Positions 51,560 to 64,000 are shown, numbered from the stretch's first letter. The stretch is DNA of 64,000 bases from a virus (IMGVR_UViG_3300020439_000005:16698-80697), one strand, 5' to 3'. Program-made: numbers and translations. Notes: generated by a model from the letters alone, not told the origin.

Positions 51560-52075
51560 CCCCAATTTAATTCCGCATTAATTCAAAGGAAAAAAATCGA
51601 CTTTTTTTCGGTTCAAAACCCAATCTCACAAAACATGGGGGAGGGGTGTTCCGAGATGGTGAAAGAAATGGTGTGAATTAACGCCGAATTAAATCCGAGT
51701 AAAAACGTGGTACTACGCACTTCCGTATTTAACTGTTGAAATTAATTCCGTTTGCTGAGAGAGCATTACCACACACACACACCTTTTCCCCCTTGTGTGT
51801 GTGTCCCCCCATAACCTTCCAAAATCATTTAATTAATTTCTAAAATAGTAATAATAGTATAGTATATAGTAGTAATATCACAATGGAGATAAGGCAAACT
51901 CGCACGTAGCGTCCGAAAACAGTATGCGGTGAAAATAGGGTCTCAATATGGTGCTGACCAACCATAGGGGAGGGGTTGAGGGGGGTTTTCTTGTGTGGCA
52001 TGGTCAGAATATCGGCTAAACTATCAGAAATAAGGCCTATATGACCGACATGTTATATACTAAAGGCCCCGCGTA
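51560..52075. other. AT-rich intergenic region at a strand switch; candidate replication origin
   Basis: Repeated AATT(A/C) words, ACACACAC/GTGTGTGT inverted repeat, AT-rich tract 51825-51880. Confidence 0.4.
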
Positions 52076-52084
52076 GGTCATTAC

Positions 52085-52531
52085 ATGACCTACGGGACAT
52101 CAAACAACACGCGACAACCACGACTGACCGGCCACGCCATCGAGCGAGCCGGAATCCGGCTTAAGCCGGATGAATTGAAGCGGGCTTTAGCCGTCGCCTC
52201 AATCGAATGGGCTAAACTAGAAGCCCGAGGACATCGAGCCGGAGCAATCGTCTCACTTGACTTGAAGGGCATCCGTAGAACCGACAACTCCGGGTATGAG
52301 TCTAATGGCGACATGGTCGTCCTCATCATCGTTAACGGTTCAATCGTGACCGCATACCTTCGCCGCTCATCACAACCACTTGACGCTAATTGGCGAGCCG
52401 GTATCAACCGCCGACATAATGCAACCATCTCAAAGAAAGGCGTCGTATGGGGTCGAGGTACTGAGACCATCAAGACCCTCAATCAAAAGGCATGTGCTAA
52501 GGCTTCAAAGTACAACAAGAGGAGGTATTGA
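52085..52531 (+). CDS. Basic protein with RelE/BECR-like N-terminus
   Basis: LTGHAIERAGIR...VVLIIVNGSIVTAY; TTATATAC promoter upstream. Confidence 0.45.
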   Translation: MTYGTSNNTRQPRLTGHAIERAGIRLKPDELKRALAVASIEWAKLEARGHRAGAIVSLDLKGIRRTDNSGYESNGDMVVLIIVNGSIVTAYLRRSSQPLDANWRAGINRRHNATISKKGVVWGRGTETIKTLNQKACAKASKYNKRRY

Positions 52532-52532
52532 A

Positions 52533-53060
52533 TTGAAAGGCACTTTCACTTTCACCATGGGCCTCCCTGCCGCCGGTAAATCGTCGGTTATCAAGGACGG
52601 ACGGGCAAAGGTAGACGGAGCGGTTCTCTTAGACTGTGACTCATTCAAAGAGGCTCATCCCGACTATGACCCTCATAATCCTCAAGCCCTTCATTCATGG
52701 TCGAAGGCTAAGGTCAAGGAGGCATTCAATGAGGCACTAGAGACCGGCGGTCAATTCGTTTACGACACAACCGGAACCAATGCGCCGAGAATGCTTAACG
52801 AAATGAACCGAGCAAAGGAGGCAGGGTTCAACGTCCGTCTAGTATTCGTCAAGGTCGACCTAGTGACTTCTATCGGACGCAATCACGACGCCTCAAGGGG
52901 TCGGGTTGTGCCTTTGCCGGTCATCATTGAGAAGGCCGACAAAGTGAACCGAGTATTCGACGAAATCCACCACGTCGCCCACGAAGTAGTAATTATCGAC
53001 AACTCAAGAGACAACACCTTGAACACACCATCGGCATACATGGAGGCTTTCACCCTATGA
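52533..53060 (+). CDS. P-loop kinase (zeta toxin/AAA_33-like)
   Basis: GLPAAGKS, LDCDSFKE, VYDTTG, RN...R.R.VP; GGAGGT then TTG start. Confidence 0.75.
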   Translation: MKGTFTFTMGLPAAGKSSVIKDGRAKVDGAVLLDCDSFKEAHPDYDPHNPQALHSWSKAKVKEAFNEALETGGQFVYDTTGTNAPRMLNEMNRAKEAGFNVRLVFVKVDLVTSIGRNHDASRGRVVPLPVIIEKADKVNRVFDEIHHVAHEVVIIDNSRDNTLNTPSAYMEAFTL

Positions 53061-53247: not shown

Positions 53248-53343
53248 AGATTTGCACAGGATTTGCAGGGTATCGAGCAACTATCGAGTAAATGTGTGCC
53301 CCGCTCGAATACTATCGAGTAAATGTGCAGTCGGCTCGAACAC
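53248..53343 (+). repeat. Tandem 31-bp repeat with TATCGAG(T/C)AAATGTG core
   Basis: 53281-53311 and 53312-53342, plus GATTTGCA twice upstream. Confidence 0.85.
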
Positions 53344-53349
53344 TAATGG

Positions 53350-53767: not shown

Positions 53768-53899
53768 TCATTTCACCCCGAAAGGTGGTCCACCTGTTAG
53801 ATGAACATACATATTGATGATTTGAACCTTAGCGTGATGTAATTCGGTCACAGGTCCATAAGGTGCGCTCGGTAGTCGGTTGTAGCGTTGTGGTAGCAT
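53768..53899 (-). CDS. 43-aa microprotein
   Basis: GGAGGAG RBS and TATATAA promoter upstream. Confidence 0.4.
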   Translation of the reverse strand: MLPQRYNRLPSAPYGPVTELHHAKVQIINMYVHLTGGPPFGVK

Positions 53900-53962: not shown

Positions 53963-54385
53963 TCAGTATGTACTAGGATGCCTCCATTGTGCCCTGCGCT
54001 CGTCCTCTAAGCGGTCAGCCTCGCCGAAGGCTCTAACCTTCGCAAGCATTTCCGTACGTGCCTCATTAGAGACGCAGTTAACCCCGAAAACCGGAGTGTC
54101 CCTGTCGTCAGCGTGAGCGTCAGCAAGTCGGCAAGGCTCGCAGATTCTAACTGTAATATTCTTGAAGACGTTGTGCTGAGGCATTACTTCTCGGATGAGG
54201 GCTTCAACTTCTTCGGAAGTCGATGGCTTGTTTGATGTTGCGCCATAGCGAGCCATTTCATACGAAGTGCGGGCGGTGGTCTCAATTGAGAATTGATGTA
54301 GCATTAAGTCGATGTTGAGCATATTTGCAGGTGCGTCCGGTGCGTCGCAGTAGTCGCAGGGGTAGGTGGTCGGGAGTTGCGTCAT
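53963..54385 (-). CDS. Hypothetical protein with split CxxC pairs
   Basis: CDYC...CEPC; TTTAATA promoter upstream. Confidence 0.6.
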   Translation of the reverse strand: MTQLPTTYPCDYCDAPDAPANMLNIDLMLHQFSIETTARTSYEMARYGATSNKPSTSEEVEALIREVMPQHNVFKNITVRICEPCRLADAHADDRDTPVFGVNCVSNEARTEMLAKVRAFGEADRLEDERRAQWRHPSTY

Positions 54386-54527
54386 GGTTGGTCGTAGGCG
54401 TTCCCCCTATTAAAGATTCTGATAGGTTCGGTTTCACAAAACGGAAACACCCTAAAAGCGAAAGATTATATACCCCCATCCCTTAGCATCACGTGTCGCT
54501 GGCCTCGGCGAGCCGACCTCGGACAAA

Positions 54528-54690
54528 AAAATGGTCGGACGCCCGTTGACTCGTCAGCCAACGGACGCCCATTTTATCCCCTACTATTTTCACTCCCATG
54601 GGGAGCGGACGCTCTTAACGTCGGGTTTTCAAGGATAGTTGGAAAGTCAAATGGTCGGACGCCCGTCAGCCCGAAGGCCAACGGACGCCC
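54528..54690 (-). repeat. Duplicated hairpin AAATGGTCGGACGCCCGT...CCAACGGACGCCC; distal copy followed by U7 (terminator-like)
   Basis: Copies at ~54529-54570 and ~54649-54690. Confidence 0.7.
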
Positions 54691-54704
54691 TTACGTCCAC
54701 CTAC

Positions 54705-55079
54705 TCAGTAGGTGTCGCGGCTTTGGGTCACACCGGTTGTTCCGGTGAAGTCGACCTCAAGTTCGCCGTAGCATGATTGTGCCCTAAAGCGACTGAACAA
54801 CGAGTCAAAGACTACACCGCTCAAGTCGTCTGCCCTAGTCCAAAAACCAACAGGGGTATTGTTTTGGGTGGACGAACCACGTACGGTTGATACGCCATAG
54901 TCAGCAGGGTCAACGTCGACCCTCACTGCCATGCACCCGCAACCCTGCCCGGTGCGGGAGAATGCGTCGGTGAGGGCTTGGTGCCCCACCGCCATAAGTG
55001 CGTTCACGTACGCACTCTCGTTGTCGGTCGTTGCTCTTAGTCTCGGGTTTCCATAGTCGGTCATATTGGTTGCCTCCAA
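54705..55079 (-). CDS. Hypothetical protein
   Basis: ORF with own promoter and GGAGG RBS (likely start MTDYG). Confidence 0.55.
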   Translation of the reverse strand: MEATNMTDYGNPRLRATTDNESAYVNALMAVGHQALTDAFSRTGQGCGCMAVRVDVDPADYGVSTVRGSSTQNNTPVGFWTRADDLSGVVFDSLFSRFRAQSCYGELEVDFTGTTGVTQSRDTY

Positions 55080-55208
55080 ACTGTCCGAGGGGGGTTGTAG
55101 GTATAAAGGTATGGTTCACAAAGGTTGAGAGTAATATAACCAAAAGATTATATACCTACATCCCTTCGTAGACACGTGCCGCTACCGCCCCCGCCGAGGG
55201 TCGGCGAT

Positions 55209-55244
55209 AAAAAAGGGGGACTGAGAGCCTAAGCCCTCAGCCCC
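55209..55244 (-). terminator. Hairpin plus U-tract after ardC-like gene
   Basis: GGGGCTGAGGGC-TTAG-GCTCTCAGTCCCC-TTTTTT on the minus strand. Confidence 0.7.
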
Positions 55245-55251
55245 GTTGCGT

Positions 55252-56244
55252 TCAATGCTCCGTGGTGATACCCTCAAGGGCTTCCATGGTGGCACCGTCC
55301 GTAGTGGTCGCTCCGTCGTGGCTCTCAGGGCGTCCCCCTATAACCCATGAGGCCGCCGCACTAGAGCGAGTCAAGGCTCTGAGAATGGCCTTTCTAGCCT
55401 CCTTCTGAGGCGTCCTAGAAGCCCACCCTGCTAAGTAAGCCGCCGAGCGGTTCATGTTGCTCTCGTAGCCTAGAACCCCACATGCGGCCACGCTAGACAA
55501 TTCAGCGATTAACTCCTCAACTGCATAGTCACCGTCTCGGGCTGAGTAGCCTCCTAGAGGTCTCGCTAGCCTTAGAGGGTGGCCGGTTGCATGACTCGCT
55601 TCGTGAAGTAGTACGCATGCGTAGTCGTCGATTGATTCCCATGCGGTCATGGGTGGCATGGTGATTGTGTCGGTTGAAGGCGTGTAGTACGCCGCCATGC
55701 CGTCAACGATTCGGACGCCGTCAAGGTTGGACTGTACGACGCTCCATAGGTCGGATGCGTCGACCGGGTCTCTCTCCTCAACTCCGAGTCTGTCTAAAGC
55801 CCACTTTGCCGGAATGTTTGTGTTCTCGATATTCCAAACCGGATAACTTCGGAACCCTTGAGCGAAGCGGTCGGGTGCTTCGTCGTCGTCCTTCTCAGTT
55901 TTCTTGATTTTGTACATGATAGGACGGAAATGATAGGTGTCCGCTTTGCCGCCCTTCTTGAAGGCGAATAGGTCTTCGCCGTCGTTCTCGTTATTGTACT
56001 GCTCCATGAGTTTCTTAGCCTGTCCGCTAGCGACAAACAGAGGACTTGAGTATTCTCCTCTCTGCATGGCTAGGATTGACGCCCAAACATTGAGTCCGCT
56101 AAATGCGTTCCCGGTGTGGGCGTTGGTGGGTGTAAACAAGCCGTTCCATGGCTTGACCCATTCCGGCATATTTCCGCTTTGGATAATGCTCAGAACCTCG
56201 TCTGCAATTTCGTTCATTTGGTCAGTTGTTTTTGTGTGCTTCAC
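55252..56244 (-). CDS. ardC: ArdC-like antirestriction protein (ssDNA-binding plus zincin-like domain)
   Basis: PEWVKPW, FSGLN, VWNIENT, AYYTPSTDTITMP, LLHEASHATGHPLRLAR, YAVEELIAEL, SAAYLAGW. Confidence 0.88.
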   Translation of the reverse strand: MKHTKTTDQMNEIADEVLSIIQSGNMPEWVKPWNGLFTPTNAHTGNAFSGLNVWASILAMQRGEYSSPLFVASGQAKKLMEQYNNENDGEDLFAFKKGGKADTYHFRPIMYKIKKTEKDDDEAPDRFAQGFRSYPVWNIENTNIPAKWALDRLGVEERDPVDASDLWSVVQSNLDGVRIVDGMAAYYTPSTDTITMPPMTAWESIDDYACVLLHEASHATGHPLRLARPLGGYSARDGDYAVEELIAELSSVAACGVLGYESNMNRSAAYLAGWASRTPQKEARKAILRALTRSSAAASWVIGGRPESHDGATTTDGATMEALEGITTEH

Positions 56245-56512
56245 GTTGTCTCCTCCTTGAATACATACTGAGCGAAGGGGCTTAGGTACTTAAAGGGTCG
56301 CATGCTCAAAGTCTCAAAGTCATATAAGCGAAAGACTATATACCTCCTGTGGTACGTTGAGTATGATTAGGCGTCGCCGATGTGGGGTCGGGATGAAAAA
56401 AATCGGCTGAATGTGTGGAGGGTCGGAGACCAACCCGACCCCCCGATGGAGGCCACACCGGAAGTCACCCGAAGGCGTCCCGGTGTGGTTTACGATAGTC
56501 TGAATGCCCGAC

Positions 56513-57034
56513 TCAGTCGAAGCGGACGGGCGCGGAGACCGTCCTCTCTGATACTCGGCGCATGTCTGCGAGAACCTGTTGACCGTTGGCTAGTGCCTCG
56601 GGGCTTAGGTTGATTGCGTCCATGATTGCCTGTCCGACTTCGTCGGATGAAGCACCGTCAACGCCGGATTGAATGGCGTCAAGGACTGCGTCTCGTACTG
56701 TGCCTCTGAACATACCTAGAAGGGATGCTGATAGAAGCATGGCGACCGATGTCGGGAACGCCATAGTTTGACTGCGGGTGTAGGATGCTCCAACGATTAG
56801 GTCGCCCTCAAAGGTCGCCGTGTCGCCGGTAGCGTTGTTAGTGACGGTGAAAGAAGTCTCGGTCACAGAGTCCTCCCCGAATGCCTCTCTAGCCTCTGCG
56901 ATTGTGTCGCCTAGGTTAGAGCGGATTACCGCTCCTAGCCCCGCAAAGGGGAACGCGGTCTCAACAGAGCCGGTCGCTCTGTCGATGACTACGTCAGTCG
57001 TCGTTATGCTTTCTGATTCAATGCTTGAAGTCAT
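56513..57034 (-). CDS. Hypothetical protein
   Basis: 173 aa; GGAGG RBS and TTTAAG promoter. Confidence 0.65.
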   Translation of the reverse strand: MTSSIESESITTTDVVIDRATGSVETAFPFAGLGAVIRSNLGDTIAEAREAFGEDSVTETSFTVTNNATGDTATFEGDLIVGASYTRSQTMAFPTSVAMLLSASLLGMFRGTVRDAVLDAIQSGVDGASSDEVGQAIMDAINLSPEALANGQQVLADMRRVSERTVSAPVRFD

Positions 57035-57122
57035 TTCTTACTGCCTCCGAACCTACCGAACAAGACTCCACACTTAAAGGTTTGCTTTCACCAAACTCGC
57101 TAGGCATATATCTAGTAGGGGC

Positions 57123-57314
57123 CTAAGCCCCCACATTTTCGTCCTCAACGAGTACGAAGCCCCCCATGTCGATGACGTTTTGACTAACCATTCGTAGGTC
57201 CGGCGTCAGATGGGACACACTCCAATGGTCGGTGTTCATTCTGTAAAGGAGGCCGTCTATTCTAACATAGATAGCCTCTAGGTTTATGTTTAGGTCATGG
57301 TAGTTTGTGGTCAT
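57123..57314 (-). CDS. 63-aa hypothetical protein
   Basis: GGAGG RBS before MTTNYHD; the longer track ORF runs through promoter DNA. Confidence 0.5.
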   Translation of the reverse strand: MTTNYHDLNINLEAIYVRIDGLLYRMNTDHWSVSHLTPDLRMVSQNVIDMGGFVLVEDENVGA

Positions 57315-57636
57315 TTTTCTATACCCTCCGGTGCAGTCGAACGAAGGCGTACACTTAAACCTTTGCATTCTCAAAGGTTTAGATAGATATAGTGTAAAGA
57401 CTATAAACCCCCATCTCATCGTAGACACGTGCCGCTTACGATGCGAGCCGCCGAGCGGGTCGAGATTTTGACGGCCACCTCCCGCCCCTCCTCCACGGTT
57501 AGCCATTGGATATAAACATTCTGATAGTTTGTGCATCTGATAGTTTACAATCAATATAACCAAAAGACTATAAACCCGCATCTCCTCATAGACACGACTA
57601 CTACTACTGCGGGCGGGGGTGGGTAGGTGCCCGCAA

Positions 57637-57755
57637 AAATGTGGAAAAAATGTGGAAAGTATCGGCTAAGTATCGAGCAAATGTGGAGAAAATGTACAAA
57701 GTATCGGCTAAGTATCGAGCAAATGAGCAGTTTTAATCGGAAGTATCGACTAAAT
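57637..57755 (+). repeat. Tandem 42-bp repeat with AAGTATCGGCTAAGTATCGAGCAAATG core
   Basis: 57637-57678 and 57679-57720 plus a degenerate third copy. Confidence 0.9.
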
Positions 57756-58305
57756 CTTCATCGTCTTCGACTATTGCTTCGATTTCGATTATCTCTTTCT
57801 GCAAGACTTCCCTCATCTGCTCCAACGGGTCGTAGCCTATGTTGACTACTACCTGCGGCTTGGCGTCCTGTGCCCCGCTCATCTTGTCTAGTCCGTCCTG
57901 TTGTTTGATTAGACCACCGACCATGAACGACACTTGACCCAACTTGCTGACTGTGTCTGCCTGTTCCTCTGCTTTGATGATGAGACGCTCCATTCTCTCT
58001 AAACTACGGCGACGCCTAGCATAGGAATCCAACCTAAGCCAATCCGTATCATCGAGTTCTGCTTTCATCACAACCATTTCTCTCATGTTTTCCGCTAAAG
58101 CCGAAGCATCGGACATAAGGGAAGCCCACTCATCGGGGTCGAGTCTCCTCTCCAAACTCGCATCTGAGACTTTTCTTCGTATCTCGGATGGTCGCAAACC
58201 ACGGACTAGCAATTGTGCCGTCCAACGGACTAGCGGGTCATGTTCTCTTTCAGCCGGTAGGGTCTCTCCATCCCACTCGTCCAAATTGTCTTCTTCCATA
58301 CCCAA
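57733..58305 (-). CDS. Putative terminase small subunit
   Basis: N-terminal HTH-like (LLVRGLRPSEIRR), helical core, C-terminal VVVNI strand; adjoins the repeat array. Confidence 0.45.
   Translation of the reverse strand: MGMEEDNLDEWDGETLPAEREHDPLVRWTAQLLVRGLRPSEIRRKVSDASLERRLDPDEWASLMSDASALAENMREMVVMKAELDDTDWLRLDSYARRRRSLERMERLIIKAEEQADTVSKLGQVSFMVGGLIKQQDGLDKMSGAQDAKPQVVVNIGYDPLEQMREVLQKEIIEIEAIVEDDEDLVDTSD

Positions 58306-61305: not shown

Positions 61306-64000
<2,695 letters not shown>

Follow-up and report, generated by a model that had tools for sequence, protein, structure and literature searches.

Genes and repeated element at the locus

We analyzed a stretch of 64,000 nucleotides (nt) of viral DNA, hereafter the window, which corresponds to bases 16698 to 80697 of a single 80,697-nt virus record (IMGVR_UViG_3300020439_000005). 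The element under study is a repeated, promoter-like motif of about 50 nt, in which an upstream block, an AAAG transcription factor B recognition element (BRE), a TTATATA box, and a downstream block reaching the predicted transcription start follow one another. It is harbored by a module of five small minus-strand genes, located between a conserved gene (57733 to 58305) and two plus-strand genes (52085 to 53060). Nearly every gene of the genome is on the minus strand, as the original prediction, a first reading of this DNA from its sequence, had stated for the genes of this region. The copies of the element and the genes of the module (lengths in amino acids [aa]) are as follows.

54446 to 54495, plus strand: copy 1, with the upstream block, the AAAG BRE, TTATATA, and CCCATCCC..CACGTG, ending at the predicted start
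55128 to 55178, plus strand: copy 2, the top match of the profile hidden Markov model (HMM) search (E = 9e-11)
56316 to 56365, plus strand: copy 3, with the BRE/TATA part unchanged and a different downstream class (GTTGAGKATGATT), common to the copies of the relatives L089, L105, and L117
57381 to 57431, plus strand: copy 4, 167 nt from copy 5, with no credible gene in between
57548 to 57598, plus strand: copy 5
53963 to 54385, minus strand: ORFan gene, 140 aa, with no homologue in the closest relatives
54705 to 55064, minus strand: ORFan gene, 119 aa, with no homologue in the closest relatives
55252 to 56244, minus strand: gene for an ArdC-like anti-restriction protein, with ArdcN and zincin-like MPTase-PolyVal domains
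56513 to 57034, minus strand: ORFan gene, 173 aa, present in G001 (the closest complete relative) and L116, there on the other side of ArdC
57123 to 57314, minus strand: small gene, 63 aa

Four of these five genes had no match in Pfam or PHROG. A 152-aa open reading frame (ORF) starting at 57581, which runs through two copies of the motif, is probably over-extended.

The 14-nt core of the element, AAAGAYTATAWACC, occurs as exact matches at 54461, 55143, 56331, 57396, and 57563, all five on the plus strand, where shuffled sequences gave an expectation of 0.03 and none of 100 shuffles reached five. A search of the other 16.7 kb of the virus record did not find the core. We also built a profile HMM from 57 copies in relatives and other viral contigs, leaving out the copies of the window itself, and applied it to the whole 80.7-kb genome; it recovered only the five sites (E ≤ 4e-5), and the next match had an E value of 3. 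Since the profile returned just these sites and chance would give 0.03, the element is real, occurs far more often than chance would allow, and is limited to 3.2 kb of the 80.7 kb, on a single strand. The five plus-strand copies of the original prediction are thereby confirmed, and neither in the full genome nor in its closest complete relative was the motif scattered at a background rate. Its finer description also held: CATCYC directly follows the core in copies 1, 2, 4, and 5, and CACGTG(T/C)CGC is present in copies 1, 2, and 4 (at 54490, 55173, and 57426). When the window and the relatives are taken together, one BRE/TATA part is combined with three downstream classes, CCCATCTC..GACACG, YTAACCCATATCACTAACCCC, and GTTGAGGATGATT.

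The element resembles a plus-strand promoter with no gene behind it

Next, the box of the motif was compared with the boxes that serve genes in the same genome. TTATATA occurs nine times, seven of them outside the motif, and for six of those seven, the ATG of an ORF (114 to 353 aa) lies at +22 to +25. The box of the motif, (T/C)TATA(T/A)A, is A/T-rich and matches these gene-serving boxes, and at genome position 68238 a GAAAG stands immediately 5' of a gene-serving TTATATA, comparable to the AAAGA of the motif. The direction of an archaeal promoter is determined by the BRE. In all five copies, the purine-rich AAAGA is found on the plus-strand side, and the opposite flank is GGGGG or similar.

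To describe its conservation, 60 copies from the relatives and the window were aligned, excluding those inside the family B DNA polymerase gene (PolB). The information content, counted from the start of the motif, is high from about -15 to +24, moderate up to about +34, and nil beyond, so that the conservation past the TATA box noted in the original prediction reaches about +34. This edge coincides with the predicted transcription start, approximately 22 nt past the TATA box. The interval of about 20 nt between box and start is strongly conserved and carries a palindrome, CACGTG in three copies of the window or TCTNAGA in relatives. As judged from the alignment, the pattern of conservation is that of a DNA signal and not of an RNA gene. 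Together, the shared TTATATA, the plus-side BRE, the end of conservation at the predicted start, and the lack of an ORF behind it support the earlier reading of the motif as a plus-strand BRE/TATA promoter without a gene downstream; the plus-strand direction is well supported, albeit not proven.

The element keeps a preferred spacing to the terminator of the preceding gene

A box of the TTTAAG/TTTATA type precedes each gene of the module, at about 25 nt from its Shine-Dalgarno sequence or start codon, and in most genes a TTTGWGAA block lies 8 to 9 nt upstream of this forward box. A divergent TATA-like box was found 36 to 52 nt away from all five motif copies, extending the original claim of four copies with a divergent promoter at approximately 40 to 50 bp. 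The forward promoters, the hairpin terminators, and the spacer that separates copy 1 from the terminator it faces are as follows.

54409 to 54440, minus strand: forward promoter of 53963 to 54385, with TTTGTGAA as upstream block and a TTTAAT box about 25 nt before the ATG
55102 to 55122, minus strand: forward promoter of 54705 to 55064, with TTTGTGAA, TTTATA, then GGAGG and ATG
56289 to 56310, minus strand: forward promoter of the ArdC-like gene, with TTTGAG.., TTTAAG, GGAGGAG, and GTG
57073 to 57094, minus strand: forward promoter of 56513 to 57034, in a spacer without motif or T-tract terminator
57354 to 57375, minus strand: forward promoter of 57123 to 57314, with TTTGAGAA, TTTAAG, GGAGGG, and ATG
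54525 to 54571, minus strand: terminator of 54705 to 55064, a 16-bp hairpin and T7 (-28.1 kcal/mol on minus RNA, -13.2 kcal/mol on plus RNA)
55209 to 55244, minus strand: terminator of the ArdC-like gene, a 12-bp hairpin and T6
56396 to 56488, minus strand: terminator of 56513 to 57034, two hairpins and T7
54496 to 54524, no strand assigned: GC-rich spacer of copy 1, conserved in length and free in sequence, with equivalents at 55179 to 55208 and 56366 to 56395

As the original prediction had proposed, three copies (1 to 3) run into the terminator A-tract of the next minus-strand gene. These A-tracts (54525 to 54531, 55209 to 55214, and 56396 to 56402) begin 50 to 52 nt after the motif and represent the T6 to T7 tracts of hairpin terminators belonging to minus-strand genes. 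G-U pairs occur in these hairpins, whose stability is far greater on minus than on plus RNA (-28.1 versus -13.2, -28.2 versus -14.6, and -22.8 versus -18.3 kcal/mol), indicating that they terminate the minus-strand genes. Thus, each of the three hairpin/T-tract terminators of the module is paired with a motif at 50 to 52 nt, and the spacer at 57035 to 57122, which has neither a T-tract terminator nor a motif, still has a forward promoter. The hairpin that terminates 54705 to 55064 is tandemly duplicated (54529 to 54585 and 54649 to 54705, with the hairpin copy at 54650 to 54690; 75% identity, 120 nt apart), and only the distal copy is followed by T7.

The same distance is observed beyond the window. 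Among 27 unique copies with a run of at least six A's downstream, the run lies 47 to 53 nt past the motif in 17, which come from seven sources; a smaller group is found at 63 to 69 nt. Pairwise identity over the 28 nt preceding the A-tract is only 31%, near the level of unrelated sequences, and the spacer cannot be aligned. From the predicted start to the A-tract, the spacer measures 27 to 33 nt (about 30 nt), and its GC content in the window is 0.65 to 0.78, compared with 0.48 for the genome. The GC-richness described in the original prediction was therefore found, at a length of about 30 nt instead of 35 to 45 nt. From these comparisons, the spacer is kept in length and free in sequence. The T-tract begins approximately 30 nt downstream of the predicted plus-strand start, and a rough estimate based on general polymerase footprints suggests that a polymerase reading the T-tract would touch a complex bound to the backward promoter.

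The element is widespread in related marine viruses and lies between shuffled genes

A 22-nt extended pattern of the motif was found in 43 stretches of IMG/VR. In 596 Gb of prokaryote genomes it had seven matches, against about nine computed by chance; one of these is a mis-binned viral contig, and six are bacterial or unrelated contigs. G001, whose major capsid protein is 95% identical to that of the window and whose structural genes are nearly identical, has seven profile copies within 3.4 kb of the same module, all seven antisense and on one strand. The profile search did not detect the motif in four complete relatives with capsid identities of 62 to 70% (G002 to G005). These motif-free genomes keep a forward promoter, TTGAGAGAAC-N-TTGATATA, and G005 (L139: 979 to 1011, 3626 to 3658, and 5244 to 5276) carries a repeated forward block, ATTGAGAGAACC-N6-CATTGATATA, which resembles the TTTGWGAA-N8-TTTAAG of the window, with no backward motif. 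The forward early promoter class is thus likely the older, family-wide part of the arrangement.

Gene content between the copies differs markedly from that of G001. ArdC is only 67% identical to its counterpart there and sits across the 173-aa gene, with the order swapped; three genes of the window have no counterpart, and the class of cassette found beside a given gene is not the same. The placement of breakpoints is limited, as the module genes themselves are 67 to 74% identical and yield no nucleotide-level breakpoints. Copies 4 and 5, 167 nt apart with no credible gene between them, look like a deletion scar between two cassettes. The fixed terminator spacing, the wide occurrence in related marine viruses, and this shuffling of the genes that lie between cassettes are new beyond the first reading of the sequence.

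Other lineages place the element differently. In L107 (8590 to 8640), and likewise in L086, L090, L108, L109, L122, and L151, the full motif with an upstream TATA-like block lies in sense within PolB; translated, it reads EKDYIPPS and belongs to a variable loop immediately ahead of the YQDTDS motif, and this placement could be an internal promoter or a coincidence. The loop is missing in the window and G001, and the homologous loop of other relatives carries only CCCATCTCAT. We considered a mobile insertion into PolB, given that polymerases of the L107 type hold the motif in a 16-residue stretch missing from PolB of the window, and rejected it because relatives have homologous loops free of the motif, pointing to an ancestral variable loop. 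In L082 (8773 to 8850) and in L083, L097, L104, L036, and L038, the motif is antisense, 10 nt past the stop codon of the large terminase gene, and the next gene, encoding a 256-aa protein whose N terminus is hydrophobic, takes its ATG and first codons (MGVYSLL...) from the reverse complement of the motif; codons compared by eye differ mostly synonymously between contigs. Convergent pairs about 70 nt apart are found in L091, L096 (9300 to 9500), L099, and L115, and three tandem copies within 170 nt in L117 (7453 to 7623). As for a regulator co-occurring with the motif, the conserved neighbor at 57733 to 58305 was rejected, since it is present in motif-free relatives, and its own neighbors in the Atlas are unnamed viral proteins.

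Virus identity, genome ends, and surroundings of the module

The genome encodes a terminase, portal, protease, capsid protein, tape measure, and tail proteins, along with an RFC-like clamp loader, a prim-pol, and an XPD-like helicase. The best named matches of its PolB are haloarchaeal viruses (24% identity), and one of 72 metagenomic relatives of this polymerase is labelled "archaea type." About 80 marine contigs of IMG/VR, including several complete ones of about 80 kb, carry relatives of the capsid protein that are 60 to 95% identical. Against phage records, the capsid protein had just one weak match and a blastn search of the region had none; a search of IMG/VR with ArdC did not confirm relatives. 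Magroviruses, the viruses of Marine Group II archaea, are marine and have head-tailed genomes of 65 to 100 kb with archaeal-type replisome genes (PMC5434244), and their family B polymerase clusters with that of haloviruses (PMC5434244). By likeness to this published description, we infer a magrovirus-like tailed archaeal virus.

The two ends of the record (genome 1 to 200 and 80498 to 80697, the latter at 63801 to 64000 in the window) form an imperfect repeat within a collagen-like (Gly-X-Y) gene and are therefore probably assembly breakpoints rather than virion ends. In two complete relatives, the distance between the direct terminal repeats and the conserved gene that neighbors the module differs considerably. 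This speaks against entry from a fixed end and is what permuted or assembly-defined ends would give.

Several features surround the module. Of the two plus-strand genes, the one at 52085 to 52531 is served by a plus-strand TTATATA-N25-ATG promoter, and the other (52380 to 53060), a rare plus-strand gene, encodes a Zeta-toxin/AAA_33-type P-loop kinase (E = 1.6e-15). Short direct-repeat arrays flank the 4.4-kb module on both sides (57637 to 57755 and 53248 to 53345); their units, AAATGTGGA.. and AGTATCGRCTAAGTATCGAGCAA, are spaced 11 and 20 to 31 nt and look like iteron-type protein-binding sites. Beside the module, about 500 nt of AT-rich noncoding DNA (51565 to 52080) contains a 21-nt inverted repeat (51565 to 51585 and 51674 to 51694) and a CACACACACA...TGTGTGTGTG palindrome near 51780 to 51806, making it a candidate replication origin.

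RNA contigs from the module

Assembled RNA contigs from four runs of a single marine metatranscriptome study, with depths of 2 to 8, matched the module exactly at 54623 to 54784, 54924 to 55074, 56458 to 57048, and 57021 to 57170. The right ends at 57048, about 25 nt past the TTTAAG box, and at 55074 coincide with the starts predicted by the TTTAAG/TTTATA boxes, which is a weak hint that these boxes are forward promoters. The 56458 to 57048 segment is represented by 592-nt contigs in two runs and by shorter pieces in two further runs. On the left, it stops within the hairpin that comes first after the stop codon, with 55 nt remaining to the T7 tract, possibly hinting at a mature 3' end of the 56513 to 57034 transcript at the hairpin.

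Proposed arrangement of the cassettes and points for and against it

We propose, with moderate confidence, that the motif belongs to composite cassettes of a terminator and two divergent promoters, similar to the promoter-early stem-loops (PeSL) of T4-like phages, in which the best-conserved promoter faces backward and serves to counter-transcribe or insulate the early units. Such cassettes would separate independently transcribed early genes, ORFan and anti-defense, of a magrovirus-like tailed archaeal virus. Read along the minus strand, each full cassette begins with the oligo-T terminator of the gene upstream and its hairpin(s), followed by the GC-rich spacer of about 30 nt, fixed in length and free in sequence, and by the predicted backward promoter with its consensus BRE/TATA part (about 50 bp). 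A spacer of about 23 nt, the forward early promoter TTTGWGAA-N8-TTTAAG, and the Shine-Dalgarno sequence with the start codon complete it.

The layout of the cassettes, their restriction to one module, their conservation, the spacing, and the gene shuffling are seen in the sequences; that the motif fires, in which direction, and to what effect, we infer from them. The TATA-binding protein (TBP), transcription factor B (TFB), and RNA polymerase (RNAP) of the host would gather at the backward promoter, and transcription would begin about 22 nt beyond the TATA box, some 30 nt before the T-tract. Because most copies have no run of at least five T's on their own strand within 120 nt, a plus-strand transcript would probably continue past the terminator and enter the convergent gene at its 3' end. 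The result would be head-on initiation complexes and noncoding counter-transcripts passing through the terminator into the upstream gene. In this way, termination could be reinforced and the next promoter shielded from read-through, the early genes could be damped in cis, or both, and the function would lie in the act and place of transcription rather than in the sequence of the RNA. The conserved cassettes may double as homology patches for the swap, loss, and gain of genes.

The original prediction had offered four functions for the motif, of which the best fit is an antisense or collision effect on the early genes, as the predicted promoters face the 3' ends and terminators of these genes at a fixed distance. 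A more specific version, which we consider doubtful, is a built-in insulator. Here, a preinitiation complex or a polymerase that has just started, standing head-on about 30 nt beyond the oligo-T, would stall read-through polymerases on the weak U:A hybrid.

Several observations weigh against this proposal. The RNA contigs cover neither a motif nor a spacer and are silent either way on plus-strand starts. The TATA core is nearly symmetric, and the gene starting at 53899 uses the opposite reading, TATATAA, so that the orientation of the motif rests mainly on its BRE. A simple archaeal promoter would not usually show such strong conservation between box and start, with palindromes, which is a hint that an additional factor binds there; the host itself is presumed to be archaeal. 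No T-tract lies at the 50-nt distance from copies 4 and 5. In L089 (6320) and L102 (1423), the element lies in the same sense as the gene, about 60 nt upstream of the gene's own promoter, and in other lineages it lies within coding sequence, in sense in the PolB loop and antisense where the gene following the terminase begins. Antisense placement is therefore not universal, which argues against a single rigid role and leaves room for an operator-like site or a recombining repeat.

Alternative explanations

The alternative that survives best, which we nonetheless regard as unlikely, is that the element is an operator or upstream activating sequence of the adjacent forward promoters, bound by a viral or host factor, possibly with TBP; its likeness to a TATA promoter would be secondary, and it would not be a working promoter. 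The element is invariably found upstream of a forward promoter, with a constant distance of about 23 nt to TTTGWGAA, and in L089 and L102 it lies upstream of the gene promoter in the other orientation, as would be expected of an orientation-independent site. The approximately 20 conserved nucleotides between box and start, with their palindromes, would also suit a bound factor. However, forward promoters with TTTGWGAA exist without the element, both at 57073 to 57094 and in the motif-free G002 to G005, and the core reproduces exactly the box found before leaderless genes of the same genome. Moreover, a fixed distance to the T-tract of the previous gene is unexpected for an activator site of the next one, and no candidate regulator co-occurs with the element, as the neighbor at 57733 to 58305 is also found in motif-free genomes.

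A mainly selfish or neutral repeat, acting as a homology patch or a mobile regulatory cassette whose backward orientation has no selected role in transcription, appears quite improbable. The differing gene order and content between cassettes in the window and in its closest relative, the scar-like neighborhood of copies 4 and 5, the triple tandem and convergent pairs of the relatives, and the presence of motif-like sequence in coding regions would all be compatible with it. Yet the orientation is uniform (5/5 in the window and 7/7 in G001), the distance from motif to T-tract is kept although the spacer sequence is randomized, and conservation stops sharply at the predicted start; these three features suggest selection on function. 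In addition, neither terminal inverted repeats nor target duplications were seen, just a 5-nt TGAGA/TCTCA symmetry noticed by eye in some copies, and the apparent insertion in PolB is an ancestral variable loop.

The original prediction had also considered a family of tiny RNAs, in which each copy would be the gene of a small trans-acting viral RNA; this fits poorly, and we regard it as very improbable. The element does look like a promoter with no ORF behind it, and copy 1 could terminate at a TTTT (54572 to 54575) after a hairpin, yielding an RNA of about 80 nt. Against this, the transcribed part is not conserved, most copies have no terminating T-run on their own strand, and the hairpins they face are weak on plus RNA. 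On both strands, the spacers of 17 copies fold no better than shuffled sequences (z from about -2.7 to +1.4, most near 0), so that the shared GCCGA..GGTCG hairpin described earlier was not recovered. Searches of the region against Rfam (gathering and E ≤ 1 thresholds) and for tRNAs gave no match. Complementarity between the spacers and the rest of the viral genome, a check the original prediction had suggested for these variable segments, reached 12 to 14 nt at most, the level of shuffled controls.

That the promoters drive leaderless micro-ORFs is barely credible. A GTG (within CACGTG) or, in copy 3, an ATG does stand at the predicted start in copies 1 to 4, and three relatives share, by eye, a 10-codon frame (MDG...K) with a TAA at the A-tract. 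However, the frames range from 10 to at least 28 codons, diverge after the first 3 to 5 codons, and take their lysines from the terminator A-tract, copy 5 lacks a start codon, and in the relatives' copies no conservation of a coding type follows the start. Conserved small ORFs downstream, which the original prediction had named as evidence against its reading, were looked for, and no ORF of conserved length or sequence was found in the window or the relatives' copies. Equally hard to credit is a T7-like entry, in which host RNAP would draw the genome into the cell from these co-oriented promoters. In its favor, several strong putative promoters share one direction within 3 kb and, by geometry, each gene body would enter ahead of its own promoter if entry ran in the plus direction. 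However, no such promoters exist in the other 77 kb, the contig ends, which overlap imperfectly in the collagen-like gene, do not support a fixed end, two complete relatives differ in where their terminal repeats lie, and other lineages have the element beside the terminase gene or inside PolB.

Comparison with known systems and significance

The closest parallel to the cassettes is the PeSL of T4-like phages, in which repeated intergenic cassettes of a stem-loop terminator and an early promoter accompany gene swaps, gains, and losses (PMC2839356, PMC4122927). Both systems combine, in a short intergenic repeat, a stem-loop terminator with an early promoter of the host type, within a hyperplastic region of ORFans where each small gene has its own transcription unit and where genes are swapped, gained, and lost among close relatives. 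The machinery here is of the archaeal type (BRE/TATA and oligo-T), whereas PeSL use sigma-70. Furthermore, the most conserved promoter here faces the terminator and turns away from the next gene, in 5/5 copies of the window and 7/7 of G001, and a second, weaker class serves the gene; the distance from promoter to T-tract is fixed. A PeSL-like TATA-like box with an inverted repeat, next to most ORFs of one genome arm, has been summarized for the halovirus HGTV-1 (PMC3950731, citing Sencilo et al. 2013), for which a PeSL-type reshuffling of genes has also been proposed (PMC3950731). That archaeal tailed virus likewise has a recurring TATA-like motif in one region of its genome; according to the summary, and compared by description only, its motif precedes the ORFs in sense.

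In the temperate phage lambda, the promoter p_O gives rise to oop RNA, a counter-transcript antisense to the 3' end of cII, which is single, short, terminated, and conserved in sequence. The likeness lies in a promoter just past the 3' end of a gene that fires back into it; the viruses studied here differ in having five to seven copies, whose transcribed sequence is not conserved and usually has no terminator. Roadblock termination occurs in yeast. In bacterial promoter-coupled terminators, a promoter-bound polymerase modulates termination through proximity (bioRxiv 10.64898/2026.08.19.745784). A preferred short distance between terminator and promoter (here 47 to 53 nt in 17 of 27 copies) is common to both; the bacterial arrangement is head to tail, with overlap within about 35 bp, whereas the one here, presumably with an archaeal host, is head-on, with the predicted start about 30 nt from the T-tract. 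Bidirectional promoters are described as arising from the symmetry of TATA or -10 elements (Warman et al. 2021, cited in PMC10268837). As far as that description goes, the near-palindromic TATATA core, back to back with a gene promoter and with a divergent RNA predicted to be antisense and noncoding, is similar; here, two boxes stand about 45 bp apart, and the antisense one is better conserved and has its own BRE.

Promoters are not mentioned in the magrovirus literature that we searched. To our knowledge, nothing is known of the transcription signals of abundant uncultivated marine archaeal viruses of this kind. The element provides a sharply defined, family-wide, promoter-like signal, and its fixed spacing offers a link between promoter and terminator in Archaea that is open to testing. 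The findings also suggest that cassette-mediated gene shuffling of the T4 type shapes the early anti-defense region of archaeal tailed viruses. If the insulator version were true, the element would be a natural head-on promoter-coupled terminator in Archaea that enforces termination; carried on a recombining cassette, it would allow early anti-defense genes to be plugged in and out with their neighbors undisturbed. Overall, if the backward promoters fire, these viruses would hold a compact natural case of programmed antisense or head-on transcription for insulation or for control of early genes.

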